A stretch of DNA of 38,334 nt from a virus (Duplodnaviria; Caudoviricetes), in the IMG/VR virus record IMGVR_UViG_3300012942_000085, positions 1 through 38,334 of that record. One strand, 5' to 3'. Under the pieces are notes generated by a model, which was not told the DNA's origin, made no database searches, and worked only from the letters and a program-made list of their open reading frames with translations. Made by a program: the position numbers and the translations under genes. Of the stretch, positions 120 through 34,909 are shown piece after piece (position 1 is the first letter of the stretch; each line of letters begins with the position of its first letter).

Positions 120-710
120 TTAAGGCATCCGCTCGGCGTACACGTCGAACGACGGCCCGGCCGGCGACCACGCCTCGGCGTGCGCCTCCTTCAGCGCCTC
201 GTACACCGTCGCCGCCCGCAGCGCCAGGTCCAGCGAGCCTTGCAGGTCGGTGGTCGTCGACTCCAGCCGCGCGCAGGCCCGCCGCCACACCAGCATGGCG
301 TTCCTGTTGCCGAGCGCGGCCTCGCGGACGCACCACAGCAGGCAGTCGAACTGGTCGGCCAGGCGGAGCGTCAGCGCCTCCTCCGCCGTCAGCGCGCCGG
401 CGTAGTCCAGGCCCCACTCCGCCAGCTTCCGCCGCTCGAACCTTTCGAGCGCGGCGCCGAGGCCGAGCGCCTCCTTGGCGCCGGCGGACACGTCGCTGGC
501 CCACTGCTCCGCCAGGTCGTGCGTGAGCGCGGCCATCAGCAGCGACGCCGACGCCTTGGTGCGCCCGTCGGGCCCGGCGCCGGCCAGGACGGAGCACAGC
601 ATCGCCACCCCGTGGCTGTGGCGCCCGTCGGTGTCCGGCTTGAGGCCGGGCCGCGCGTGGTAGCGCTCGACGCTCGAGCCCTCCGATATGAATTGCAGCA
701 GTTCCTTCAT
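120..710 (-). CDS. HD-domain 5'-deoxynucleotidase / dNTP phosphohydrolase (YfbR-like)
   Basis: RY…HSHGVA…ALTHDLAE…SDV…ADQFD pattern; ATG at 710 with AGGTGAG RBS. Confidence 0.8.
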   Translation of the reverse strand: MKELLQFISEGSSVERYHARPGLKPDTDGRHSHGVAMLCSVLAGAGPDGRTKASASLLMAALTHDLAEQWASDVSAGAKEALGLGAALERFERRKLAEWGLDYAGALTAEEALTLRLADQFDCLLWCVREAALGNRNAMLVWRRACARLESTTTDLQGSLDLALRAATVYEALKEAHAEAWSPAGPSFDVYAERMP

Positions 711-859
711 GGTCTCACCTCGTGCCGAAGCCAGCCTCGCTTCTTGATTATGTTCCACGCCTTCCGCGCCCGTCCGACCCGGTCGACGACGGCCCAAAGC
801 GCCAGCACCTCCCGCCTGCGCCTCCGCTGCTTCACAGCCGCGCCCCGCAGTCCTGTCAC
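707..859 (-). CDS. Small basic hypothetical protein (start uncertain: 859 or 835)
   Basis: Fills the gap, with stop/start overlaps on both neighbours. Confidence 0.4.
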   Translation of the reverse strand: MTGLRGAAVKQRRRRREVLALWAVVDRVGRARKAWNIIKKRGWLRHEVRP

Positions 860-1494
860 ACGTCGACGGGCGGCGCGGAGTCCGTCGTCGCGACGTTCGC
901 GTGCCGGCACGGTCCCCACCCCGCGGCCTCGAGCGTCCCAAGGATGTCGGGCGGCGAATACGACGGCCCTTTGCCGCCGCCCGGCCCGTATTTGGCGGCG
1001 CCGATGTGGTAACCCGGCTCCTTCGTCATGTTGCTGCGGTGCACCTCCGCGAACAACTCCAGCAGCGGCAGGCCGAGCGCCGCGGCCTCCATCGACAAGG
1101 CCACGTCGAGGGCGCGCAGCGCGGCGCCAAGGTCCTCGCGGCCGGCCAGCGCCCAGGCCATGTCCCGCAGCGGGCCGGCGCACGCCAGCATCAGCGAGGC
1201 CGCGGCGACGGCGTCCGGCGCGTCGCGCGCCGGCGACGGCGCGTAGAAGAAGTCCGCCATCGGCAGCCCGTACGCCACGGCGCACCCTACCACCACGTAC
1301 TTCAGGTCCGCGAGCCCGTCCGCGGCCTCCACGACGTCGCCCGCCGCCATGGCCCTGTGGGCCTCGAGCAACTCCTCGAGGACGAGCTGCCACCGCACCG
1401 CCGCCACCTCGGGCGGCCTGTCCGTCTCCGCGCCCGGGACCTCCGACCCGATCCGCGCCATGAACTCCGCCACCATCTCCCTGCTGCTTTTCAT
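856..1494 (-). CDS. MazG-like all-alpha NTP pyrophosphatase (PRA-PH/DR2231-like, possible dUTPase)
   Basis: V.EF, LEELLE…EAADGLADLKYV, EVHRSNMTK, KGPSYSPPDI motifs. Confidence 0.8.
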   Translation of the reverse strand: MKSSREMVAEFMARIGSEVPGAETDRPPEVAAVRWQLVLEELLEAHRAMAAGDVVEAADGLADLKYVVVGCAVAYGLPMADFFYAPSPARDAPDAVAAASLMLACAGPLRDMAWALAGREDLGAALRALDVALSMEAAALGLPLLELFAEVHRSNMTKEPGYHIGAAKYGPGGGKGPSYSPPDILGTLEAAGWGPCRHANVATTDSAPPVDV

Positions 1495-2537: not shown

Positions 2538-2824
2538 TTGACCTCCAGCTCGTCGGCCACCAGTTTGGCGTACCCGGCGATGTCCACGAAGTTGTCGGCG
2601 TAGGTCGGGTCCCCATTCAGCACTCTGGCAATTTTATGCTGCACCATTTGCAGACACTCCTTTTGCGGAGCGGTCAACCGGGCCCAGCCTGGCGCGGCCC
2701 GCATGACATCCTGCAGGCCCTGTGATATGGCCGCGTGGTTCTTGAACGCCCCGTAGAGATTTTCACGCTCGACGAGGAGTGCGGCTACGTCTGTACCATT
2801 ATGCGGCTTTTTTCTTGGTGCCAT
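2534..2824 (-). CDS. DUF6378-like protein, common in phage nucleotide-metabolism clusters
   Basis: ER..YG.F…KIAR..NGDP.Y.DNFVDIAGYA. Confidence 0.75.
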   Translation of the reverse strand: MAPRKKPHNGTDVAALLVERENLYGAFKNHAAISQGLQDVMRAAPGWARLTAPQKECLQMVQHKIARVLNGDPTYADNFVDIAGYAKLVADELEVK

Positions 2825-3311
2825 TCTTCTTCTCCTTTTGCCTTAGTTTGTCATTGTCAAGATAATCTGCCAACTTGCGCAGTATTTTTGGCGAGTCTTT
2901 TGCGTAACCGAGCGCGGCATTGCATTGCGCGCATATCCAGCCTCTAAAATGGCCTTTCTTGTGGCAATGGTCAAAGCAAATGACAACACCAGACTTTCTA
3001 CACACATCGCATCGTTTGGGGCGCTTACGCCCGGCTTGGAGCTCTTTCTTTGCAAGGGTCCATCGTCTAGACTTTGTGCGCACTTTTTCTGGATTCATCC
3101 TTGCCTATGCGGCATTCATTGCCTTATTCGCGCTAGCATTTTTCGCCTTCCAAGCTTTAGTTCGTACCTTGTGTGTCTCTTTGTGCTTGGCATAGTAAGC
3201 ACGGCTTTTCGTAACATAGGCGTCTTTATGCCTCGCATAAGTGGTCCTGCTTGCTGCAGCTTTTTCTAATTGTTGCGGGGTATTAGAAGAGCCTTTGATA
3301 CCGCGTGCCAT
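2799..3311 (-). pseudogene. Endonuclease VII-family homing endonuclease split by an in-frame TAG (3105-3107)
   Basis: CxxC…DHCH…RGWICxxCN; ORFs 3105-3311 and 2799-3098 share a frame and are separated by one stop; AT-rich. Confidence 0.7.
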
Positions 3312-12312: not shown

Positions 12313-13023
12313 TTATAGCGCGGCCGATCCGCTTTTGTCTGCTTCTAGGTAATTTGCTAAATTTCTCAGCACTTTTGATGAATCAGACGCAAGACCCAAT
12401 ACCACATTGCATTGATGGCAAAGCCAGCCACGAAAAGAATTTGACTTATGACAGTGATCAAAGCAAATGCGTCTGCCAGTTTTATGACACACACCGCATA
12501 CTTTCGGTTTATTGCCGCCGGATATACGGTCACGCAGATCCAAATAATCCGCCAGCTTGCGCAGCAGTTTTGGTGAGTCTCCTACGTGGCCTAATATAGT
12601 ATTGCATTGAAGACATAGCCATCCACGAAATTTGCCGGATGTATGACAATGATCAAAGCAAATACGTCGACCATTTCTTCGACACACCTTGCATCGTTTC
12701 TGTCTCTTACACCCGGCGGCTTTCTCTCGACTGGCCCTGTGATATGCAGTAGAACTGAGTGGAGCTACGTAGGCCGTATTTGCCGCCCTCCATTTCGCCG
12801 TCGCTGCCGTGGCAACTTCTTTGGATTTTTCTGGGTGAGCTTTCTTCCACTTTATTGTTGCCGCAACATCATACCCTGGGTGTGCCATGCGCCAAGCTTT
12901 TTTGTAGCTTGCATCCTGCTTTTTCAATCTGTCAGGATGCTCTGCTCTATATTTTCTTGAAGCCGCGGCGGCGTAGCCAGGATGCGCCGCAAACCAAGTT
13001 TTCGTATACACGGCATTTGTCAT
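12313..13023 (-). CDS. Homing endonuclease with two tandem EndoVII domains
   Basis: CxxC…ICFDHCH…FRGWLCxxCN twice; N-terminal W…HP repeats; AT-rich. Confidence 0.85.
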   Translation of the reverse strand: MTNAVYTKTWFAAHPGYAAAASRKYRAEHPDRLKKQDASYKKAWRMAHPGYDVAATIKWKKAHPEKSKEVATAATAKWRAANTAYVAPLSSTAYHRASREKAAGCKRQKRCKVCRRNGRRICFDHCHTSGKFRGWLCLQCNTILGHVGDSPKLLRKLADYLDLRDRISGGNKPKVCGVCHKTGRRICFDHCHKSNSFRGWLCHQCNVVLGLASDSSKVLRNLANYLEADKSGSAAL

Positions 13024-13031
13024 GGTTAGCT

Positions 13032-14504
13032 CTACCTGCCGCGTTCCTCTGAATACCGTTTCATCGCGTCAAGAAATGCCTTTTGGCCGGTGTACTTGGC
13101 GCGCAGATTCCGCATTTTTGGCACATCGACGGTGTCGCGCGCCACGAAATGGTGCTTCATGACGAATGCCGCTTTATTCCCTTGCCTAGCAACCCTTTGA
13201 TAGAACTGATCGTAGGTATCGTAGTTATCGTCTATATTAAAAAAAGCCACATTCTGCGCGTTGAACTTCTGCAGGTTCAACCCGTGGCCCATTGATGCGG
13301 GGTGGCCGAGCAGCACCGGGATGAGCCCCCTGTTCCACCGGTCGATGTAGTCCGCGGCCTGCCCGCGGGTGGTGTCGCCGTTGATGCACGGGACATCGTA
13401 CCCCAGCCCCTTGCGTATGGCCGCGACGTCGTGGTGGTAGCCGATGCCGACCAGGATCGGGTCGCCCTGCAGCTCGGACACCAGGTCGGCCAGCGCCTCC
13501 ACCTTCGCCGCGTGCAGCTCCTTGAACGGACGGTTGGTCGACCGGATCCGCTCCTCTGGGTCGGAGTCGAGGTAGACGGAGCCGTTGGCGATCTGGCAGC
13601 ACTTGGAGCGGGCCGACGCCGACGAGGTGAACGGCGCGGTGAACAGCGTGCTCATGAGGCTGCCCTCGATCGCGTCGTACTCCTTGCGCGCGGCCGGCGG
13701 CAGCTCCACCAGGTGGGTGCGCTCCATCTCCTTCGGCAGCTTGAGGTAGTCCCTGGCGTCGAGCCGCATCACCATCGGCGCCACGAGCGCGTCGATCCTC
13801 TCGGCCGACCCCGGCAGGATCTCCCACTCCCGCATCTGGAACCCCGTCGGGAAGAAGAACTGGTTCCTGTAGTGCGACAGGTACTCGCCGAGCGCCGCGC
13901 CGAGGTCCATGATGAACACCTGCCCGTGCAGGTCGAGGTAGTTGCGCGGGCGCGGGCTGCCGGTGAGGATGTGGCGGCGCCCGAACCCCCTCAGGTGCTT
14001 GCGCAGCGCGCGGAACCGCACGGTGACGGAGCTCTTCCAAAGGGACGACTCGTCGATAACGAGCATGTCGGCGCCGAGCGCCCTCACGCGCGCCTTGCTG
14101 GCCGTCAGCCATGGCACGCCCTCGGGGTTGATGACGCACACGTTGTGCTCCGGCCGCAGCGCGCGCAGCACGGCGTCCTTGCCCGGCCCGTGGAGCAGCG
14201 CCACCCGCATGTCCTTGAAGTCCGTCCAGTCGCACACCTCGGCCGGCCACACGTCGTAGCAGGCGCGCAGCGGCGCCACGACGAGCAGGCGCTTGACCAG
14301 CCGCTTCTTCAGCAGCACCTTGAGCGTCCCGAGCGTGACGCTCGTCTTGCCCATCCCCGGCGGCAGCAGCAGCCCCGACTGCGGGTTCTCCAGGACGAAG
14401 CGCATGGCGCGGCCCTGGTACTCGTGCGGCTTCCACGGCTTGGACGCGGCGCGCCACTCGGCCATCTTCGCCGCCAGGCCCTTCGGCACCAGATCATGAG
14501 GCAT
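13032..14504 (-). CDS. SNF2-family DNA helicase
   Basis: PHEYQ, GMGKT, IDESS, LTGSP, GHGLNLQ, Q…RV.RQG. Confidence 0.9.
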   Translation of the reverse strand: MPHDLVPKGLAAKMAEWRAASKPWKPHEYQGRAMRFVLENPQSGLLLPPGMGKTSVTLGTLKVLLKKRLVKRLLVVAPLRACYDVWPAEVCDWTDFKDMRVALLHGPGKDAVLRALRPEHNVCVINPEGVPWLTASKARVRALGADMLVIDESSLWKSSVTVRFRALRKHLRGFGRRHILTGSPRPRNYLDLHGQVFIMDLGAALGEYLSHYRNQFFFPTGFQMREWEILPGSAERIDALVAPMVMRLDARDYLKLPKEMERTHLVELPPAARKEYDAIEGSLMSTLFTAPFTSSASARSKCCQIANGSVYLDSDPEERIRSTNRPFKELHAAKVEALADLVSELQGDPILVGIGYHHDVAAIRKGLGYDVPCINGDTTRGQAADYIDRWNRGLIPVLLGHPASMGHGLNLQKFNAQNVAFFNIDDNYDTYDQFYQRVARQGNKAAFVMKHHFVARDTVDVPKMRNLRAKYTGQKAFLDAMKRYSEERGR

Positions 14505-14862
14505 CGTCCACCTTCTCCCACAGGGTCGCGTTGGCGGCGGTTACCTTGACGCCGTTGGACGGCGTGCAGTCTAGCTCCGCCGCGCCGCCTTCGACGGCGA
14601 CGACGGTCCTGACCGGCGCCACGACGAGCAGCCGCCGCGCCAGCCGCTTCTTCGACAGCACCTTGAACGCGCCGAGCGCGGTGCTCGTCTTGCCCATGCC
14701 GGGCGGCAGCAGCAGCCCCGATTGCGGGTTCTCCAGCATGAACCGCATGGCGCGGCCCTGGTAGTCGTGCGGGGTCCATGGCCGCGCCGCCGCGCGCCAC
14801 TCCGCCATCTTGGCGGCGAGCGCCTTCGGCACCAGGTCCGCCGCGTCGTTTTTTCTAGGCAT
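14494..14862 (-). CDS. Truncated paralogue of the helicase N-terminus fused to a 'VT…WEK' tail
   Basis: About 75 residues closely match the helicase N-terminus through LVVAP. Confidence 0.8.
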   Translation of the reverse strand: MPRKNDAADLVPKALAAKMAEWRAAARPWTPHDYQGRAMRFMLENPQSGLLLPPGMGKTSTALGAFKVLSKKRLARRLLVVAPVRTVVAVEGGAAELDCTPSNGVKVTAANATLWEKVDDAS

Positions 14863-15094: not shown

Positions 15095-15390
15095 TTCCCC
15101 GTCCTCGCCCATCTCCCCATGTCCTCCATGAATTTCTCCCAAGTGTCCCACCTGCGCGCCTCGTAGCCGTCGGCCGCCAGCTTGGCCAGGTACCACGGCT
15201 GCGTCGCGGCGCGGGTCCCGCGCGACCCGGCGCCCTCGGCCTTGAACTCCCCGACCACCGGCCTGCCACCCGGGACGAAGAACACCCTGTCGGGTATCCC
15301 GTCGCATCCGCCCAGCTTGGCCGTGACGATGTCGTGGAAGCGCGCCCATTTGACGGCCCGCGCCTCCAGCGGCGACTCGCGCCTACCCAC
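15091..15390 (-). CDS. VRR-NUC domain nuclease
   Basis: E..LE…GIPDR…EFK…Q. Confidence 0.8.
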   Translation of the reverse strand: MGRRESPLEARAVKWARFHDIVTAKLGGCDGIPDRVFFVPGGRPVVGEFKAEGAGSRGTRAATQPWYLAKLAADGYEARRWDTWEKFMEDMGRWARTGK

Positions 15391-15946
15391 GCAGTTCTGC
15401 CTTGCGTATTGGTGCGAATTTTCCGTAGTACAATTTTTCAGCGGTGCGACGTGCTTTTACGGCCTTGTCAAAGTCGTTCTTGGCGAAATAGCCAAGACTA
15501 ATTCGCCTACCATCAACACGTATCAATACTTGCCATTTATTAAAGCGTGTTGCCCATGACACTCCAGTGACTCCACTTGTATTGTCCCTACTAGGCTTTG
15601 GTTTGTTGTGGCGGTTTTGGCTATGAGTGGCCGGCCGCAAATTTGTCCACTTGTTGTTCCAGCCATCGCCGTCTTTATGGTCTATTAGATTTAATGGCCA
15701 ACTGCCAGTCATGAAGAGGTGGGCCAATCTATGCGCGTAGTAAAGCCTGCCGCCAAAGCCTATTACAACAAGCTTATTTCCGTCTTTTCTTTTGGCGCAG
15801 TGCCCGGCTACGGCGCCTTTTTTGTTTCTACCGCCGTTTATACGCCATATGAAAAGGCCCTTGCGGGGCAGGTAGTTTAATGCCGCACGAAGCTTTTCTA
15901 ATATGATAGGCGTCGATTCCAAAGATTTTATTGATTTTCTTGGCAC
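15383..15946 (-). CDS. HNH homing endonuclease with AP2-like C-terminus
   Basis: YAHRLA…IDHKDGD..NN.W.NLR.AT..QN; NTSG.TGV; AT-rich. Confidence 0.9.
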   Translation of the reverse strand: MPRKSIKSLESTPIILEKLRAALNYLPRKGLFIWRINGGRNKKGAVAGHCAKRKDGNKLVVIGFGGRLYYAHRLAHLFMTGSWPLNLIDHKDGDGWNNKWTNLRPATHSQNRHNKPKPSRDNTSGVTGVSWATRFNKWQVLIRVDGRRISLGYFAKNDFDKAVKARRTAEKLYYGKFAPIRKAELRG

Positions 15947-16852: not shown

Positions 16853-17573
16853 CGGCCCCCTCCGACGGCAGGTGGAAAATGTGCTGCGGGTCCTGCTGCG
16901 GGTCCACCTCGTGGAGCAGCGCCGTCAGCGCCTCCGCCACCGCGGCCTCCCGGTACGTGGCGCCGTCGAGCTCCACCAGGTCGATGTCCTTGACGGAGCC
17001 CACCAGCCTTGCGACGACGGCACCCATCGAGTCCAACGGGATGCGGTAGCCGCGCTGGTAGAACTTCAGCACGCGCAGCAGCGACCCGCCGGCGTCCTCG
17101 TTGCGCTTGGGGCTGGTGTACACCAGGCGCCTCGCGGCCAGGTCGGCGTAGAAGTCGGGGTGCGCCGTCGACATCCACTCCGCCCGGTGCGTCGCGGCGT
17201 CGCGGCCCGATCCGCACCACACCACCGACTTGGCCACGGTGAAGTCGAAGCTCTCCGCCAGCTCCTCCGCCGTCGAGTAGGCCCAGCGGTGGATCACCTG
17301 GATGGGGAGCGCCGCGTCCGGCCTGCGCACGGTGTGCGCGTTGGCGCTGGTCCAAACCGTCCCCTTGTCGCCGGCCAGCAGCCTGGCGTACAGCCCGGCG
17401 GTGTCGGCGTCCGGCGCGAACAAGTCGACGTCTTGTGGCTCCTCGTTCGCCACGCACGCCCTGATGAACCCGCCGGCCAGCATCGCGCGCTTGTCCGATT
17501 CCATCAGTTGCACGACGCACTTCGGCGCCCTGCGCAGCACCCAATAAACGTCCCTCTTGCTCAGCTCGCTCAT
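16836..17573 (-). CDS. Pol-beta-superfamily nucleotidyltransferase (CCA/polyA-polymerase head-like)
   Basis: LAGGFIR…DVDLF…IQVI…FDFT. Confidence 0.75.
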   Translation of the reverse strand: MSELSKRDVYWVLRRAPKCVVQLMESDKRAMLAGGFIRACVANEEPQDVDLFAPDADTAGLYARLLAGDKGTVWTSANAHTVRRPDAALPIQVIHRWAYSTAEELAESFDFTVAKSVVWCGSGRDAATHRAEWMSTAHPDFYADLAARRLVYTSPKRNEDAGGSLLRVLKFYQRGYRIPLDSMGAVVARLVGSVKDIDLVELDGATYREAAVAEALTALLHEVDPQQDPQHIFHLPSEGADAQGA

Positions 17574-18100
17574 TTATTTCCTTTCTTCTTTTCAGTTTTC
17601 AGTTTGGTTTTAAGGGCATTGGCGGCTTTCTTTGCCGCGTATTGTTTCTGGGCATTAGCTTTATGGCCCTTGACTTTTGGCTTGGTCTTATAGGCCACCA
17701 GGTAAGCCGCCAATGCCGACAGTATTTTGGGTGAATCGGCCGCGCCGCCGAGGGCTATATTGCAGCCATGGCAGAGCCATCCACGGAACAGGCCACTCTT
17801 ATGGCAATGGTCGTAATGCAGTGAACGGCCCTCATTTGGCTTGCGTTTGCAAACTTCGCAACGACTAGGACGCTTGCGATCCGCCAAGGATTCGTGAACA
17901 CCATCCCGCCATTTCTTATGGTCTACTCTACGTTTTTCCTTGTCTGAAGCAAGGTACAACTTGGCCATTTGTATTTTCCGTTTTTCAGAGTTGGCGCGCG
18001 ACCATTTATTGGCTATGTCGCGCGATGCTTGGCGGTTAGAGGCTACCCAGGCATTGTGGCTGTCGCGTGATTTCTGCTCTTTTGGTGTGAGAGTTTTCAT
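17570..18100 (-). CDS. Endonuclease VII-family homing endonuclease
   Basis: CEVC…DHCH..G.FRGWLCHGCN; AT-rich. Confidence 0.85.
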   Translation of the reverse strand: MKTLTPKEQKSRDSHNAWVASNRQASRDIANKWSRANSEKRKIQMAKLYLASDKEKRRVDHKKWRDGVHESLADRKRPSRCEVCKRKPNEGRSLHYDHCHKSGLFRGWLCHGCNIALGGAADSPKILSALAAYLVAYKTKPKVKGHKANAQKQYAAKKAANALKTKLKTEKKKGNK

Positions 18101-20013
18101 ACTGTGAACTTTTCCAATTGCCCCCATGATGGTCCGATCTCACTGTCAGACTTCATAACGAGCGGTTTGATATCCACCGAGGCGATGCACTCTTTTAGCA
18201 CCTTCATCTCTTGTCTGGCGCCTTTGTCGGACATGGGCAGGTTGACATCTACCTCATCGTATACCGTGGTAATCATGTTCTCGGTCCGCTTAGGATGGTC
18301 GTTGTACCGACACAATACTTCCTTCGTAAAATCAGCTCCGCTCCCCTGGCAAAGATAGTTTATGAGCCGGTATGTGAAGGTCATATTGCGCCCGAACTTC
18401 TCCATATACCGCGGGGGTTCCACGTAGTACAGGCGGCCTCCCAACGTCCGCATGGGTTCACCGTTATTTGACAGCTCCTTCAGCGCATTGTCGAGCTCCT
18501 TGATGGACGGCAGGGCGGTGTTGAGGCCGCGCTGGATGATTTGTGCCACGTTCTTCTCATCCTCCGCGAGGTTGAGCAACTGCATCAGGCCGGTCAGGCC
18601 TTGGCCATAGAGCCGCGCGAACACGACGCCCTTGGCGCTGTCTCGGTCGAATGAGTCCCGCAGGCCGGCCTCCCGCAATTGACGCTCGACCTCTGCCCGC
18701 ACTAGTTCATGCATGTCGAATTTGGGATCATCAAGGAATCCCTGCATCACGACGGAGTCTTCAAAGTATGCGAACAGCATGACTTCCTGCTGTGTTAAGT
18801 CGGCGCGACCCCACCTTTTGCCAGTCTCCGGCAAGGCGTAGGTGCGCACGAATGGCAGCTCCGGAACCTTCAAAAAAGAAGGATGCTTGTAGCCAAGCGC
18901 CGCCGCTTTCTTGAACTTCTTTGGAAGGTTCAATAAGTTGGGCTTGGTGCAGATAATCCGACCTGACCGCGCGCCGTTCATATCGGCGCCTCCTCCGCCC
19001 GCCTTCACTTGGCGCCATACCGGAAAGATGTGGTCACCCTCTCCCGCCAGCTCCAACCAAGGCTCCATAAATGTCTCGGTGCACGTACCCAGCTGAGCCT
19101 TGTAGGTCATTACTTGGTATACTTGCTTGTCGCTGAAAAGATCGATGGTAAGCTGCTTCTTGCCGACGCCGCGCTGACCCTTGGCGGTCAGTTTGAAGTT
19201 TGAGACGATGCCTTTGTCGAACAAGGCATCCCCCAATTGCTTGGGACTGTTCATGTTGATGTCGCCAAGCCTCCTCCGCAGCCAGGCATCGGCCCGCTCC
19301 ATGGCGGCTTTGAATACGGGAATGTCTTTCTCTAATCTGTCGACATCTACCCGCATGCCGCGCCGAGAGTTGGCCAAGAGTACCGGCATGAGCCGCTGCT
19401 CGCGCTGGTAGGCCTCCTCCATGCCAACCTCCACGACGCGCGGCCACAGCCAGTTGAACAGTCCAATGGTGCGCGTCAGGTCGCCCTTGTGGTAGGGGCG
19501 CACGATCTGGTACGGCGCCTTCCAGATGTAGGCACTGGCCGTCGACGGCTTGCGCTTTGCCTCAGGCACGTTGGCCACAATCCACTCATGCATCTTGTCT
19601 TGTTCTTCAGGCGGCGTTCCGAGCAGTTCTTCGGCAGCCGACTTCAATGCAAGTGATTGCGAGTGCGGATCATTGAGAAACAAGAGAAACATGGTATCAT
19701 GGGTGTCGCGCGGGTCGTCCTTCAAGGGAATTTCCCAGTGCGTCTCGGCGACATCGGTATCAAACATAGCATTGTGGAACAAAAGACCGTACCTGCTGTC
19801 GCGCGCCTTTTTATACTCGGCGCGTGCCTCCTTCTCTGTGCAGTTGTTGCCGAATGCTTTGGTGCCGTCCCCATGGCCCCATGCGAGCAGCTGGTAGTCC
19901 TTGCGGTCCGGCCACTTGAGGGCCAGGCTGACCGGTTTCGGCGGGAACTTTGGCCGCGCTTCTATGCCGTGCGTCTCAAAGTCGATCGTGATGACAGGCG
20001 GTGCTTTCTTCAA
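18097..20013 (-). CDS. polA: Family A DNA polymerase with 3'-5' exonuclease
   Basis: DFET, HNAMFD, YHKGD; motif A DLTQQE, motif B R..AK…F..LYG, motif C VYDE; TTG start with GGAG RBS. Confidence 0.92.
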   Translation of the reverse strand: MKKAPPVITIDFETHGIEARPKFPPKPVSLALKWPDRKDYQLLAWGHGDGTKAFGNNCTEKEARAEYKKARDSRYGLLFHNAMFDTDVAETHWEIPLKDDPRDTHDTMFLLFLNDPHSQSLALKSAAEELLGTPPEEQDKMHEWIVANVPEAKRKPSTASAYIWKAPYQIVRPYHKGDLTRTIGLFNWLWPRVVEVGMEEAYQREQRLMPVLLANSRRGMRVDVDRLEKDIPVFKAAMERADAWLRRRLGDINMNSPKQLGDALFDKGIVSNFKLTAKGQRGVGKKQLTIDLFSDKQVYQVMTYKAQLGTCTETFMEPWLELAGEGDHIFPVWRQVKAGGGGADMNGARSGRIICTKPNLLNLPKKFKKAAALGYKHPSFLKVPELPFVRTYALPETGKRWGRADLTQQEVMLFAYFEDSVVMQGFLDDPKFDMHELVRAEVERQLREAGLRDSFDRDSAKGVVFARLYGQGLTGLMQLLNLAEDEKNVAQIIQRGLNTALPSIKELDNALKELSNNGEPMRTLGGRLYYVEPPRYMEKFGRNMTFTYRLINYLCQGSGADFTKEVLCRYNDHPKRTENMITTVYDEVDVNLPMSDKGARQEMKVLKECIASVDIKPLVMKSDSEIGPSWGQLEKFTV

Positions 20014-20117
20014 CGTGGTCTCCGCGTGAGAACTGTGAATGGGAGGAGGATGACCGCCGCGGCGCCAAGACAGCACCACATGAACACTTTTGGTAAAGCT
20101 AGTATGAATCTCGCCAC
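20010..20117 (-). CDS. 35-aa hydrophobic peptide coupled to the polymerase start
   Basis: GGAG-GTG start; TTGA overlap. Confidence 0.4.
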   Translation of the reverse strand: MARFILALPKVFMWCCLGAAAVILLPFTVLTRRPR

Positions 20118-23299: not shown

Positions 23300-23644
23300 T
23301 TAGGCATTCGGCGCCGCCTCCACCGCTTCTCCGGTAGACATCTTCACCGCCCCGCCCGACTCGGCGAACGCGGCGTTGAGCTCGCACTTGTCGAGCAGCC
23401 GGTCGCGGAACTCGATGGGAGGCAGCAGGCCTTCTTCGATCCGCATGGCGAGCATCTCGCCCTTCGGGGCGAGACCCAGGTCGCCCACGCGGATGCGCGC
23501 CGTGATCGGGCCGAACGCCCGCACGACGATCGCGCCGTGGAAGACGGAGTCGGCGAACGACAGGTACCACCAAGCCTCCTCGCCGCTCTCGCGCTCCTCT
23601 TGGGCCTTCAGCGCCAGCTTCAACAAAAACTCAAGATCTTGCAT
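23300..23644 (-). CDS. Hypothetical protein
   Basis: GGAGGCGGAG RBS. Confidence 0.65.
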   Translation of the reverse strand: MQDLEFLLKLALKAQEERESGEEAWWYLSFADSVFHGAIVVRAFGPITARIRVGDLGLAPKGEMLAMRIEEGLLPPIEFRDRLLDKCELNAAFAESGGAVKMSTGEAVEAAPNA

Positions 23645-23798
23645 TCTCCGCCTCCAGGATGCGTAGTTCGACCGCCGCGTAGTCGGCCGTGAGATAGCTA
23701 CGCGCCGTTTCCAGACTTCGCCGGTGCTCCGCCACCAGCTGCGTGATCTGCTCGTGGAATGCGCTCTTGGGCACTGGTATGTTTTGTAGGTCAGGCAT
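23631..23798 (-). CDS. 55-aa mini-protein made of PolA motifs (PDLQNIP … LTADYAAVELRIL)
   Basis: Translated by hand (below the ORF-track cutoff); GGAGG RBS 6 nt upstream; overlaps both neighbours. Confidence 0.75.
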   Translation of the reverse strand: MPDLQNIPVPKSAFHEQITQLVAEHRRSLETARSYLTADYAAVELRILEAENARS

Positions 23799-23967
23799 TC
23801 ACCGCCTCCGTGTGTCCGTAAAACTCCGCCTCGTCTGGTCTCACAATGACGCCGCCGTAGCCGCGCGCGGCGCCGCACTCACATGTCAGTATAAGAAATT
23901 GAACACCCTGCACTACGGTGTGTCCGTGAGAAATATCGCTGTCAAACACGTGCCTATGCGCCTCCAT
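23791..23967 (-). CDS. 58-aa hypothetical protein (HRH…CECG)
   Basis: Translated by hand. Confidence 0.5.
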   Translation of the reverse strand: MEAHRHVFDSDISHGHTVVQGVQFLILTCECGAARGYGGVIVRPDEAEFYGHTEAVNA

Positions 23968-30321: not shown

Positions 30322-30846
30322 TTATTTGGAAGGCGCATACGCGCCAAAATAGCGCACTTCAGCAGCGCGTCTAACTTCAACCGCCGTCTTAAAATCTTCT
30401 TTCCTAAACCTACCAAGATGTATGATACGCCCATTTACAGTTATTCTAGCCCACCATTTGTTGTACTTGGAGTCCCACCCTACTCCAGTGATACCGCTTG
30501 TATTATCAGAGCGCCGCCGGTGCTTATTGCAGATATTTTGACTGCGAGTGGCCATGCGAAGATTTTTCCACTTGTTGTTCCAACCGTCACCATCTTTATG
30601 ATCTACGTCTAATTTCACTGAGGGCCACTTCCCCGTCATAAAGACAAAAGCAAGCCTGTGAGCTAGGTAACGCTGTCCATTGATACCGATGACAATTCTT
30701 TTCTTGCCTTTCTTATCCAAACTTTTTGTGCCGGCTGTATCGCCTTTACGCACTCTTTTAAGTGCATTAGTGCGCCATACAAAAACACCTTTATGAGACT
30801 GGTATGTCAATATGCCGCGCAAATAGGCGATATTCGGCCGTTTCAA
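30322..30846 (-). CDS. HNH homing endonuclease with AP2-like C-terminus
   Basis: Paralogue of 15383-15946 (DHKDGDGWNNKW.NLR shared); AT-rich. Confidence 0.9.
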   Translation of the reverse strand: MKRPNIAYLRGILTYQSHKGVFVWRTNALKRVRKGDTAGTKSLDKKGKKRIVIGINGQRYLAHRLAFVFMTGKWPSVKLDVDHKDGDGWNNKWKNLRMATRSQNICNKHRRRSDNTSGITGVGWDSKYNKWWARITVNGRIIHLGRFRKEDFKTAVEVRRAAEVRYFGAYAPSK

Positions 30847-33302
30847 AACTTGACTTTCAGCACGCGCTCGAACGCGCCCTTGACGCGCACGGTGACGGAG
30901 TCGCGCTTGGTGGAGGAGAAGCCCAGGCCCGACAGCTGCCGCTCCGATGCCTCCGTCTTCATCTTGGCCCCGACCATCTCCATGGTCTTGCGGTGGGGCT
31001 CCAGCTCCGCACGCAGGAACTCGTTGTAGAAGGGCCGAGCGGTGCCGTCGTTGACGCAGCCTTCCAGCATGAAGAACCAGTGCTTGTTGCCGACTCCCGC
31101 AAAGCCGCGAAATCCTACTTCCAAGTCATCTTGAGTGATGTCCCAGTAATTGGGCGACAGCATGGCCATGCTTGCCTTGTGAAACCGCTGCGTCTCGAGG
31201 CCCCAGACCGTCTTCACGGACTGCATCGAAGGCAGCGACTCGACAATCTCGAATCCGGCGGCCCGCGTGTACTTGATCTTGGCCACCATGACGGTATCCC
31301 CAGTGCGTAGCGCCTTCTCGTATGCGAAACTATGCGTAGCGCCGTCGAACTCCACCTGTGCCTCGAAGCCCTTGCCGTCCGAGCGCCGCGAGTAGTTGTT
31401 CACGGACAGCTCGTACACGCCCTCCACCATCTTGGCCTTGTCCGCGTAGAAGATGTTCTCCGCCGGTTCGGACTTCATGCCATCGCAGCCGTTGGCGTCC
31501 AGGTCCAGCATGCCGCCGTTGGCCGACAGGCGGCGCACGTTGCCGTAATAGATGTGGTTACCTTGCGAAGAAAGTCGTCCACCAAGTGCCTTAGTCGCCC
31601 CCGGCTCCTGCATGTGGAAATCCAGGTCGTCCTCATAGTCCCACGCCAGGCGGCAGCAGAGATCGCCCGTTACCGAGCCGCCCGCCCGCTTCACGCGCTC
31701 CTTGATGGCGTCGGCGAAGTCGCCTGCGTAGCTCCACGAGAAGGCGTTGGGCCACTTGAACATGCCCTTCGCGCCCGGATCGACGGGCGCCACCAGCGAG
31801 ACGAGGCTGCCGACGTGCCGGTTCTCGAACAGAACCTCCAGCGACGTGGCCTTCGGCAGCACGTCCTTGATAAATTTCTCGACGGAGACCTCCTCCACCT
31901 TGTCGTACGAGCGCGGCTTCTCTGGCAGCGACTCGGCCAGTGCGGTCAGCGCTTGCTCGGCGCTCAGCGTCTTGCCTCCGCCGCGCGAACCAGTATGCAA
32001 CTTCGCCGAGCGGTCGGCGAACAGCACGTTGTTGACCGTGACGTCCTCCGGCACGGCGTAGCGCCGCTCCAGCGCGGACGTGTACCCCAGCTCGTTGATG
32101 GCCTTGCGCGCCTTCTCCACCATGGCCTTCGTCACCAGCGCCGTGGGCCGCTTGTAGTTGGACGGCGCCACCATCGCCTCGAACTTTTTGACGGCGTCCT
32201 CCATCTCCAGCGGTCCGCTGCCCTCGTGCGCGTGCCGGAAAGCTCGCTGCGGGCAGATGGTCGAGACGCATTCACCGGCCTCGTAGGTTCTCGACGGGGA
32301 ACCGCTCAGATCTTGCAGCAGCGTGCCGATGGCCGTGTTGCGGATGCGCGAGACGGACGGCGGAAGTGTCTGGGACGCTTGCCAGCAAAATACGTCGCGC
32401 TGCGCGGCCCACATCCTGGCTACTTCAGATACAGCCGGATCAGCGGTAGGCACGTCCAGTTTCGCGTATTCCTTCTTCAGCTTGCGGAACTCCGACACGG
32501 CGAACTTGTTCTCCTCGCCCTTGTACAGCGAGTTCTGCGCGATGAGCTCCAGCACCGTGTCGACGGCGTCGAGCGTGAGCTCCTCCAGGCCGCGCTTGAG
32601 CACGTCGAACGCGGCGCGGGCGTCCGACTGCCTCGGCCCCACCTGCTCTTTGATAACGACGGCCTCGTTCGGCAGCCGCAGGTGGAAGTGCTCCCATGTG
32701 TTGACCGCGCCCGGCTCCGGTTTGCCATCCGCGCCGAGCAACTGCTGAAACGACTTCTCCGTCCCCACCGTCTTCTCGGTATGCAGGAAGATGTTGTCGA
32801 TCGCGGCGGTCCGAACGAACTCCGCCATCGCCTCGCCCACGTCGTCGTAGAAGGTGTCCGTAGCCCTGAAATCCCAGATACTCTCCAATTTGCCGTCCAC
32901 GACGACCACGACGCCGCCCATGGTGCGCACGAAGTGGCGGCAGCAGGAGCAGTCATGGTCGGTGCGCTCCTTGTAGAGCGGGTTGGTGCCCTCGGGGAAC
33001 GACGCCAGGTACTTCTCCCACAAACGGTCGCCCGTGGCCGCCGCGCGCTGCTCGGGGGAGCCGAGAAGCTCGCCCTGCGGCCCACTCAGGTCCACGCGGT
33101 AAAGCTGGTGGCCCTTCATCAGCTCGAACTGCTTGGCCACGGCGTGCTTGACGACGCTGAACGGCGCGTCCTTCTCCACGTTCTCGAAGCTGGGCTTGCC
33201 CATGGTGGCCCTCCCGGTGCGCGCGCCTTCCGGCGTCTTGAGGTTCGACTTGCGCGAAGACAAACGTCCCGTGGCCGTTCCTACCTGCTTGAATTCTGTC
33301 AT
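30843..33302 (-). CDS. Large conserved phage protein with a YfaP/DUF2135-like domain; frame stays open upstream to 33602
   Basis: HDCSCCR.F; LAW…DLD.H..EP…LDLD.N…ENI…G.Y…VNNY; -10 at 33331-33336 and AAAGGGG RBS before ATG 33302. Confidence 0.75.
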   Translation of the reverse strand: MTEFKQVGTATGRLSSRKSNLKTPEGARTGRATMGKPSFENVEKDAPFSVVKHAVAKQFELMKGHQLYRVDLSGPQGELLGSPEQRAAATGDRLWEKYLASFPEGTNPLYKERTDHDCSCCRHFVRTMGGVVVVVDGKLESIWDFRATDTFYDDVGEAMAEFVRTAAIDNIFLHTEKTVGTEKSFQQLLGADGKPEPGAVNTWEHFHLRLPNEAVVIKEQVGPRQSDARAAFDVLKRGLEELTLDAVDTVLELIAQNSLYKGEENKFAVSEFRKLKKEYAKLDVPTADPAVSEVARMWAAQRDVFCWQASQTLPPSVSRIRNTAIGTLLQDLSGSPSRTYEAGECVSTICPQRAFRHAHEGSGPLEMEDAVKKFEAMVAPSNYKRPTALVTKAMVEKARKAINELGYTSALERRYAVPEDVTVNNVLFADRSAKLHTGSRGGGKTLSAEQALTALAESLPEKPRSYDKVEEVSVEKFIKDVLPKATSLEVLFENRHVGSLVSLVAPVDPGAKGMFKWPNAFSWSYAGDFADAIKERVKRAGGSVTGDLCCRLAWDYEDDLDFHMQEPGATKALGGRLSSQGNHIYYGNVRRLSANGGMLDLDANGCDGMKSEPAENIFYADKAKMVEGVYELSVNNYSRRSDGKGFEAQVEFDGATHSFAYEKALRTGDTVMVAKIKYTRAAGFEIVESLPSMQSVKTVWGLETQRFHKASMAMLSPNYWDITQDDLEVGFRGFAGVGNKHWFFMLEGCVNDGTARPFYNEFLRAELEPHRKTMEMVGAKMKTEASERQLSGLGFSSTKRDSVTVRVKGAFERVLKVKF

Positions 33303-33562
33303 TGTGTGGTCCCCTTTCAGGACTGGTTCAATTATACCGCCGCGGCGGCCCTTCTTCCCAAGCACGCTTCTGAATTCAGGTTTATCAGGCGCCTCGCGCC
33401 GCATTACCCATGCGAGCGCCAATTCCATGGCTTCTTCCTTCTTCTCTAGCGGAAATACGACGCTGGTCTGCGTCAGTGAGTGTGGGTGCAATACAATCTC
33501 TATGCTTGTTTCGCTCTTTCGTCGTACGAGCGCCGATGGCTCGCGGTCAGGTGCGTCTAGTT

Positions 33563-33934
33563 TCATAAAGTTCCTTTCTGTTTCGGCTGGCGCACCATCC
33601 ATGTTCGTTTCTTTGCGAATCCGTTCCTACCGTACCATTCGCGCAGCTGCGCCGTGGAAAGCGTTTGGTGCTCGTTGGCCTTGGCGAACAGGTAGACCAC
33701 GAAGCCGTGCTTGTCCGCCAGCCCGCACAGCCACCGCAACGCCCTGGAAGCGCTTCCGCGGCCGGTCCTACTCCGAAGCGTGTGGATTCCGGCCAGATAA
33801 ATCTCATCCGCCAAATCCACAAGAAGCACCGTGTCACCGACCCACCCTACCATACTGCCTGGAGCGTGCGGCGTGCCCTTCGGATACGGCGAACGACGCG
33901 ACCCTGCCATAAAATCTTCAATAAATGTCTTCAT
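33563..33934 (-). CDS. GNAT-like acetyltransferase
   Basis: RTGRGSAS motif A; L..WY.R.GF. Confidence 0.65.
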   Translation of the reverse strand: MKTFIEDFMAGSRRSPYPKGTPHAPGSMVGWVGDTVLLVDLADEIYLAGIHTLRSRTGRGSASRALRWLCGLADKHGFVVYLFAKANEHQTLSTAQLREWYGRNGFAKKRTWMVRQPKQKGTL

Positions 33935-34085
33935 CCGCCCTTTCTTCCTCACCGAACCACACCCATACCAAGAACCACAATACCCATGCCGCAAGAAGCC
34001 AAATCGGGACATGCGCCGCCAGCCACACCAACGTGGCCAGCTTCAAAGTGGCCTTGGACAAGTCGAACCAGTTCTTGCGCGTCAT
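33918..34085 (-). CDS. Small membrane protein
   Basis: Trp-rich hydrophobic stretch. Confidence 0.55.
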   Translation of the reverse strand: MTRKNWFDLSKATLKLATLVWLAAHVPIWLLAAWVLWFLVWVWFGEEERADEDIY

Positions 34086-34210
34086 TTCTTGCCTCCCGCG
34101 CAGAACAGGCACTTCTTGAGCACGACCGCGCCGTTGTGCGCCACGCTTATCTTCCCGCTTCCGCCGCACACGACGCACGCCGCGCTCAGCACCCCTCGAA
34201 CCTTTGCCAT
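34082..34210 (-). CDS. CxxCxGxG zinc-finger peptide
   Basis: CVVCGGSG…CLFC. Confidence 0.5.
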   Translation of the reverse strand: MAKVRGVLSAACVVCGGSGKISVAHNGAVVLKKCLFCAGGKK

Positions 34211-34328
34211 AACCTGTCGGCTCCCTCCATCGCCTCTTCCAATGTTTCTGCCCCGGCCAGCCCGACTCCGCTCGGCGTGGTCACCAAGAATTTGCCGCGC
34301 CAAAGTTCACGCAGCCATGGGTCGAGCC

Positions 34329-34499
34329 TCATGCCGCCATCCACAACAGCAGCACCGGCCACAGCACGGCACTTCCGGCCAGGAACAGGTAGGCCTGCCA
34401 ATCCATCCACCATTTCTCCTCCGTTCCCCTGCTGGTGTGCAGCAGGAAGCAAAGACCGATCAACAGTCCAATCAGCAGGTAGGGAGCGATTAGCGTCAT
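34329..34499 (-). CDS. Small membrane protein
   Basis: Two hydrophobic helices; YL.IG…LWP. Confidence 0.55.
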   Translation of the reverse strand: MTLIAPYLLIGLLIGLCFLLHTSRGTEEKWWMDWQAYLFLAGSAVLWPVLLLWMAA

Positions 34500-34909
34500 C
34501 GCGGCAGCTCTTGAACGCTGACGGGCGACTTGTCGTGCCCAAACGTTGTGTATCCAATGCTGACGTCGCTCCCCGCGATGCGCTTCAGCATATCTTGGTC
34601 GGCTCGTACGATTATCTCGGCGGAGAAGCCGTCGTGGTTGACGTACGCCTCGCCAACCTGCTCGCCCTTTTGGTTCAGAAACGGCACTCTTTTCACGGCT
34701 TCCTCCTTTAGGAACCATTCTTTGTCGACTGCGTCCTTCAATGCCGATTGGATAAACCGCGCCGTATCCGCCGCGTCTTCCGCCAACTGAAAGTCGCCTT
34801 CTCCCAAACTTCTTGTATGCATTGCGTGGCCGCACCACCTACCGCAAATGGTAGTCTCTTCTGGGTCGATGGCAAGGCATGTATTGTCGTGCCCCTTAAA
34901 CTCGTGCAT
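34496..34909 (-). CDS. Hypothetical protein; C-terminus resembles a DUF2213 prohead-protease fragment
   Basis: VG…DG..AEI.V..D.D.LKRI.G..VSIGY. Confidence 0.55.
   Translation of the reverse strand: MHEFKGHDNTCLAIDPEETTICGRWCGHAMHTRSLGEGDFQLAEDAADTARFIQSALKDAVDKEWFLKEEAVKRVPFLNQKGEQVGEAYVNHDGFSAEIIVRADQDMLKRIAGSDVSIGYTTFGHDKSPVSVQELPR

Follow-up and report, generated by a model that had tools for sequence, protein, structure and literature searches.

In a 38,334-nucleotide stretch of phage DNA (the window, whose record represents a 38%-complete virus), we identified a 55-residue protein that joins two short segments of a family A DNA polymerase through a rebuilt linker. Judged from comparison with its relatives, the gene encoding it is real, conserved and under purifying selection. 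Tentatively, we favour a role of its product as a non-catalytic bait for host proteins that sense or target polymerases, with reuse of the fragment as a small helical protein as a close rival.

Location and ancestry of the mini-gene

The ORF proposed in the initial annotation was recovered with the sequence quoted there, running on the minus strand from 23798 to 23631, as was the strong GGAGG ribosome-binding site ascribed to it. The relevant features of the window are:

23631..23798, minus strand: gene for the 55-aa PolA-derived mini-protein (identified by its ORF, PF00476 match, selection and a shuffle test)
23805..23809, minus strand: GGAGG ribosome-binding site, 6 nt 5' of the ATG and within the end of the upstream ORF
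23775..23795, minus strand: PDLQNIP, residues 2-8, the second half of PolA motif 2
23688..23774, minus strand: rebuilt linker, residues 9-37, a predicted amphipathic helix (dN/dS 0.18)
23655..23687, minus strand: ADYAAVELRIL, residues 38-48, the motif A segment
23791..23967, minus strand: upstream 58-aa ORF, its stop overlapping the mini-gene start
23300..23644, minus strand: downstream 114-aa ORF, phrog_13485 (unknown function), overlapping the mini-gene stop
18097..20079, minus strand: full-length family A polymerase of the window phage (PF00476; motifs PNLLNLP, DLTQQE and VYDE)
2799-3098, 12313-13023, 17570-18127, 15383-15946 and 30322-30846, minus strand: endonuclease VII-type or HNH-like ORFs, a pair of which we take to be HNH-like
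33234..33305, minus strand: second PolA excerpt, TATGRLSS..NL, the first half of motif 2 (PF00476 108-130), at the N-terminus of an 820-aa protein

The mini-gene overlaps both of its neighbours, its ATG sharing 8 nt with the stop end of the 58-aa ORF and its stop sharing 14 nt with the start of the 114-aa ORF (ATG at 23644). Its frame has the best codon-usage score among the six, if weakly so (0.06), with GC by codon position of 0.67/0.42/0.69, and a search for promoters and terminators around it returned nothing above chance. The same arm of the window codes for a DHH phosphoesterase, a DNA ligase, the family A polymerase and an exonuclease. Taken together, the overlaps, the ribosome-binding site and the selection described below suggest that the mini-gene is translated.

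The initial annotation had proposed a check against the PF00476 profile and, rather than the missing match that it named as grounds for rejection, a match was found: residues 2-48 align with profile positions 126-167 (E 1.2e-4), at 21.6 bits and below the gathering cut-off of 34.3 bits for membership of the family. All five members of alignment A2 match PF00476, the best with an E of 1.3e-8. Against a PolA motif profile built from 12 full-length PolA segments, several of them close kin of each other, and from no mini-proteins, the window protein scored 17.8 bits, compared with a maximum of 7.1 among 2,000 shuffles (1,836 scored). A PDB search with a profile of five family members placed Pol I large fragments on top with both motifs aligned (best E 0.024). 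Furthermore, the longer relatives P0005 and P0006 carry TGR at their start followed by PELQNIP, and these two settle the ancestry.

Summed over the 18 motif residues of the mini-protein, BLOSUM scores were 72 for chromosomal Acinetobacter polA, 73 for the polymerase of Streptomyces phage LuckySocke, 60 and 54 for a further two phage enzymes, and 38 for the window phage's own PolA. Because the motifs score 72 and 73 with the first two of these as against 38 with the last, we consider the donor to be a cellular or phage gene of Pol I type rather than that of the resident polymerase. This bears out the earlier view that the motifs lie nearer to canonical Pol I than to the phage's own enzyme. That the gene is no simple local duplication, as had also been claimed, agrees with the lack of any blastn or tblastn match between the mini-gene and the phage's own polA motifs. 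Of the motifs being in the right order and at similar spacing, the order stood and the spacing did not: from Pro to Asp the mini-protein counts 37 residues, where Pol I-type enzymes have 31-32 and the phage's own polymerase has 47, and the linker of the mini-protein is not Pol I-like.

The window phage's own polymerase, for which the best cultured match is Stenotrophomonas phage AXL3 and kin (35-36% identical), possesses deviant motifs yet retains the acidic residues of motifs A and C. Genes for a YfbR-like HD nucleotidase and a PRA-PH-type pyrophosphohydrolase are also present (120-1494, minus strand); taken together with the unusual motifs of the polymerase, they may be a sign that the nucleotide pool is altered. 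Elsewhere in the window, a 122-aa ORF (14494-14862, minus strand) repeats the first ~85 residues of the adjacent helicase (13032-14504), including Walker A, and ends in a motif common to the upstream ORF; on this pattern, it looks like a recent duplication. Two further loci (L113 and L140) hold polymerase frames with a stop 29 residues on from where motif 2 begins, corresponding to split or intron-interrupted polA genes.

Conservation, selection and predicted structure

Seven further close homologues of the mini-protein were identified, and all eight aligned members fall within 55-68 aa. The two alignment-based searches were restricted to 30-119 aa, and a length-free search with the single mini-protein returned two proteins, both short. 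The homologues are intact short ORFs and not the frameshifted polA remnants that the initial annotation had raised as the opposite outcome; P0014, one residue off P0006, is present on 26 contigs. A complete relative of 100,317 bases (G001) carries the mini-gene intact and in synteny, at 66% identity and with an SD site of its own, AAGGAG where the window has GGAGG. Flanks were inspected for these two of the eight members: the overlap with the downstream gene is identical in kind, and both phages place the mini-gene before ligase and polymerase, while the upstream gene differs, the window's two ORFs 5' of the mini-gene (including the 58-aa ORF) being unmatched at the G001 site. G001 also encodes a permuted tmRNA and a tRNA (L006 13016-13395 and 13717-13790, minus strand), a possible clue to its host.

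Over 55 codons, the comparison of the two mini-genes gave a dN of 0.23 and a dS of 1.55, the latter nearly saturated and from this single genome pair, for a ratio of about 0.15. Synonymous-only changes affect 19 of the 55 codons and non-synonymous changes 16, and differences by codon position number 12/9/29. Ratios for four neighbouring genes span 0.10-0.22 (e.g. ligase 0.11, DHH phosphoesterase 0.19, downstream gene 0.22), two further genes being saturated. Given that the mini-gene is intact and syntenic in G001, with a dN/dS like that of its neighbours, we do not regard it as a decaying remnant. Nor is it an exon of a split polA, since Rfam detected no intron family in the window or in G001 and the intact, selected ORF is flanked by other genes. 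A 27.8-kb contig from another study spans the ORF with no listed gap inside, and the seven listed differences common to this contig's run and a second run comprise three synonymous and four non-synonymous changes.

Additional searches added little to the family. No locus was listed when viral contigs were queried with the single sequence of the mini-protein, of the downstream protein or of the polymerase, a ligase-based scan for further relatives returned G001 again and nothing else, and the mini-protein found no match in Foldseek against viral structures or in PADLOC. The ESM Atlas offered unnamed short clusters only, weak leads of which one has PF00476 in 25% of its members. The three metagenome loci reduced to the window's own contig and a pair of chance matches lying between stops (L003, L004); two genome-contig loci (L049, L050) were dropped for lack of the family helix and motif A, and a match in Rhodococcus phage Trina proved to be a chance likeness within a phosphoesterase. 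A search for the pattern [EK]P[DE][LF]QNIP yielded 21 viral loci, of which 15 represent a single recurring EPEFQNIP frame from low-GC phages, with one full polymerase, two unrelated long frames and three short frames making up the rest. The short frames stop soon past the motif (L017, L031, L032), and only L031 resembles a motif 2 excerpt: near position 330 (plus strand) its frame stops 22 residues past a near-complete motif 2, with a Met just before TGR, and is possibly a 32-aa gene.

Within the alignment, LQNIP, Glu44 and Arg46 are invariant in all eight members, and the residue after the first Pro is always Asp or Glu, compared with the usual Asn in PolA. The catalytic Asp of motif A (Asp39) is found in six of the eight, including the window protein; P0002 has Ala in its place and P0006 has Asn. 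Identity to the window protein averages 0.88 in motif 2, the best-kept part, versus 0.57 in the linker. From the eight-sequence alignment, AlphaFold2 predicted a single helix spanning residues 11-54 (mean pLDDT 85.7), with the palm strand absent and no Asp at a strand end of the kind that marks a palm fold. LQNIP falls outside this long predicted helix, one face of which presents F14, I18, L21, H25, L29 and L36 of the linker in a hydrophobic stripe that runs on through Asp39, Tyr40, Val43 and Ile47. Between motif 2 and motif A, Pol I itself has a segment made up of one short helix and a pair of strands that end at the Asp. By all indications this segment is replaced in the mini-protein and the replacement is itself under selection, the linker being as constrained as the motif A part (dN 0.24 versus 0.20). 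In sequence, P0009 (48 aa, a spacing of 31, a Pol I-like linker and DYAAVELR as in the window protein) looks like an intermediate form.

Motifs B (the O helix) and C are absent from the mini-ORF and from the other small ORFs of the window and G001. With these motifs missing, the Asp lost in two of eight members and one predicted helix in place of the palm strand, the label "mini-PolA" had to be given up in any enzymatic or structural sense; as its sequence reads, the mini-protein cannot be a polymerase or copy DNA.

Polymerase excerpts in other phage proteins

The second excerpt of the window lies on an unrelated protein of 820 aa (33305-30843, minus strand) and occurs at the same N-terminal position on its counterpart in G001 (32228-34630). 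These 800-820-aa proteins are related to phiCbK gp273 and RSL1 ORF057, and that of the window carries a second, degenerate repeat of the excerpt. The homologues of phiCbK, RSL1 and 2050H1 start after the excerpt (three of three read), and an apparent N-terminal motif alignment in those of phiCbK and 2050H1 was rejected because their genes begin after the motif. Of the 2,834 frames in the window and G001 to which the PolA motif profile was applied, the two mini-genes and the two large-protein N-termini gave the top four matches, all of which outscore the two phages' own polymerases. In each phage the two excerpts span neighbouring PF00476 positions (108-135 and 125-168), and this stretch of the polymerase, and no other, recurs outside the polymerase gene in the window and G001. 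Only three places in G001 match PF00476, and a separate piece with the fingers or motif C is absent.

Just 5' of the large-protein gene, a TATAAT is followed by a 17-base element that is nearly identical in both phages (window about 33310-33345, minus strand; G001 before 32228), possibly a promoter or operator. Among ten other records searched with PF00476, picked as leads and not randomly, a second match in the same stretch was found in four (phiCbK with gp221, CcrRogue with the orthologue of gp221, RSL1 and a 224-kb phage) and was absent from six (AXL3, LuckySocke, 2050H1 and three uncultured records). RSL1 ORF056 (L037 1-567, plus strand) contains a motif 2 excerpt within a low-complexity protein directly 5' of the large-protein homologue. 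In the 224-kb phage, a 151-aa protein (L012 9980-10435, plus strand) combines motif 2 and motif A with a run of ~80 Asp/Glu residues, an acidic tail that could mimic DNA. A scan of 9 of 64 parts of the viral contigs for an SD-ATG start with T.TGR gave 121 matches, 32 of them in frame, with no clear new excerpt, and in a tblastn search the N-terminal 80 residues of the large protein from G001 recovered two polymerase genes only.

The nearest known counterpart is phiCbK gp221 (AFU87053.1; L048 1678-1923, minus strand), annotated in GenBank as "putative Pol I DNA polymerase, palm domain". This protein of 81 aa comprises motif 2, motif A and a motif C-like VHDE without fingers, adjoins a GcrA homologue, and is matched at 70-100% by 24 Caulobacter phage records among the matches listed; its family has a dN/dS of about 0.3 among three phages. 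The polymerase of phiCbK itself is T7-like, and the motifs of the gp221 family lie nearer to cellular Pol I than to it. The window protein resembles gp221 in being a stand-alone ORF of <100 aa, with motif 2 followed by motif A and a cellular Pol I flavour, in a phage that has a full polymerase of another type, and also in its helix-like linker and purifying selection. The two differ in that gp221 keeps the RLS and IR..F parts, whereas in the window protein the sequence sets in with the Pro, the rebuilt linker is longer and motif C is lacking; a C-terminal motif C-like HDE is present in three of three CbK-like proteins read and in none of the eight window-family members. Since the window protein matches the profile of gp221, PHROG 12116, only at E 0.14 (a weak match over profile positions 10-53 of 81) and tblastn did not link the two proteins, the families may be independent captures.

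Other known systems are more distant. Like family A polymerases (PF00476; the large fragments of Bacillus and E. coli Pol I), the mini-protein has residues of motif 2 followed by those of motif A, but it covers ~42 of 381 profile positions and lacks the thumb, fingers, motif B, motif C and predicted palm strand. The divPolA1 and divPolA2 genes of tailed phages, as presented in the available text, are likewise extra PolA-derived genes beside the main polymerase, but keep a whole palm with catalytic residues, in contrast to two short motifs only (PMC11348598). In Bodo saltans virus, fragments of catalytic domains in ankyrin proteins have been proposed to act as decoys; the available account, in which catalytic excerpts occupy the 5' ends of viral genes unrelated to them, recalls our 820-aa protein, although it concerns a eukaryotic giant virus, an ankyrin scaffold and recent duplications of the virus's own genes, whereas the excerpt here does not derive from the phage's own polymerase (PMC5871332). 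The accessible main text of the phiCbK paper contains neither "221" nor "palm" (PMC3556154), the EVADES preprint, as far as its text was available, names no polymerase-fragment decoy (10.1101/2025.06.06.658234), and in literature outside subscription journals we found no study of such polymerase-excerpt genes. The class is therefore catalogued in databases, and not new there, but apparently unstudied, and the window protein is a new helical variant of it.

Possible roles of the excerpts

Our preferred, though still tentative, interpretation is that the mini-protein serves as a non-catalytic bait. A piece of a Pol I-type polymerase gene would have been captured and given rise to the 55-residue protein, whose predicted helix would display motif 2 and motif A residues. 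The bait would then bind to and tie up some host recogniser of family A polymerases, for which a defence sensor or effector is the most plausible candidate, and so protect the phage, while the phage's polymerase may have drifted from the sensed consensus that the bait retained. This fits the data because the same cleft-lining residues have repeatedly been kept in different scaffolds with catalysis lost; we infer that the motifs are the working surface and that the partner is a host protein. An anti-defence role, at which the initial annotation hinted, is plausible. According to the available text of a recent paper, Avs19 does not depend on the catalytic Asp to sense family A polymerases; recognition is at the level of the fold and requires the core domain, and a structural model of it was not obtained (PMC13581612); escapers of Borvo and AbiQ also map to polymerases, as reported in the part of the source available (PMC11348598). 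Against the bait interpretation, the mini-protein lacks the fold that Avs19 recognises, and its motifs resemble cellular Pol I and not the phage polymerase that would need the shield; the sensor would have to ignore host Pol I. In addition, a non-Pol linker as constrained as the motif A part, with Asp39 lost in two of eight members, may favour the helix over the motifs. A wider version is rather doubtful: that phages keep dispersed excerpts of the polymerase active site, as free mini-proteins and N-terminal tags, to bait receptors such as Avs19, with the window phage bearing complementary halves of motif 2 on two proteins and a real polymerase drifted at the same residues.

The close rival, itself somewhat unlikely, is that a reused polA fragment was turned into a small helical protein whose function has nothing to do with polymerases, such as that of a partner to the coupled downstream protein; the motifs would then be retained only for packing or as ends that favour translation. 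The new and selected linker, the extension of the hydrophobic stripe by four motif A residues, the variation at the motif A Asp and the coupling of the downstream gene in both phages are all in keeping with this, whereas the invariance of LQNIP outside the long helix is not, and the same excerpt in different scaffolds of unrelated phage proteins would be unexpected from chance capture. An unlikely explanation is interference with the polymerase pathway, the mini-protein either mimicking cellular Pol I in competition for a Pol I partner or wedging into the PolA of the host or a rival phage, biasing replication and repair phage-ward. The nearness of the motifs to cellular Pol I in both the window and phiCbK families and the position of the mini-gene in a replication operon with ligase and polymerase speak for it, but PolA motif 2 and motif A line the DNA-binding cleft, and to our knowledge this segment of Pol I has no host partner.

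Readings that turn on the DNA itself or on catalysis are less probable still. The window contains several free-standing endonuclease genes, including three related endonuclease VII-type ORFs (two Pfam-confirmed), and one lies directly after polA, a place where it is missing in G001; the mini-gene might accordingly be a DNA-level decoy for, or by-product of, homing endonucleases that cut polA at the motif 2 codons, its ORF preserving target-like sequence. This is improbable, given DNA identity to the phage's own polA motifs of just 13/21 and 15/33 bases, changes mostly at third positions, a non-Pol linker selected as protein and the lack of Rfam introns in both phages, and it may explain the origin of the mini-gene but not its upkeep. 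Even less probable is a subunit of a split polymerase, or a piece to be swapped into the phage's deviant one: the two excerpts do cover neighbouring profile positions and the phage's polymerase does deviate at exactly these motifs, but the complete G001 has a whole polymerase and no further pieces, the Asp is dispensable in the mini-protein family, and AXL3, the closest cultured polymerase relative, lacks the mini-gene. That the mini-gene is the decaying residue of a polA since displaced, or resembles one by chance, is already largely refuted and barely credible, despite the single-sequence Pfam score under the cut-off and the frequency of polymerase swapping in tailed phages, as described in the available text (PMC11348598). 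The low dN/dS without a frameshift at saturated synonymous distance, the fixed start and end, flanks free of polA sequence, the far lower scores of the shuffles and the gap-free coverage by the contig from another study all weigh against it.

Returning to the bait interpretation, bacterial receptors for family A polymerases have been described only recently, as the accessible text on Avs19 relates (PMC13581612). If the excerpts are baits, they would mark the surface by which polymerases are recognised and would constitute inhibitors of 55-80 residues that are easy to test, with phiCbK gp221 as a cultured model. Even if they do not act as baits, they illustrate how phages make new small genes out of the best-conserved portion of an enzyme, and they caution that a short "DNA polymerase I" annotation in a phage genome need not be debris.
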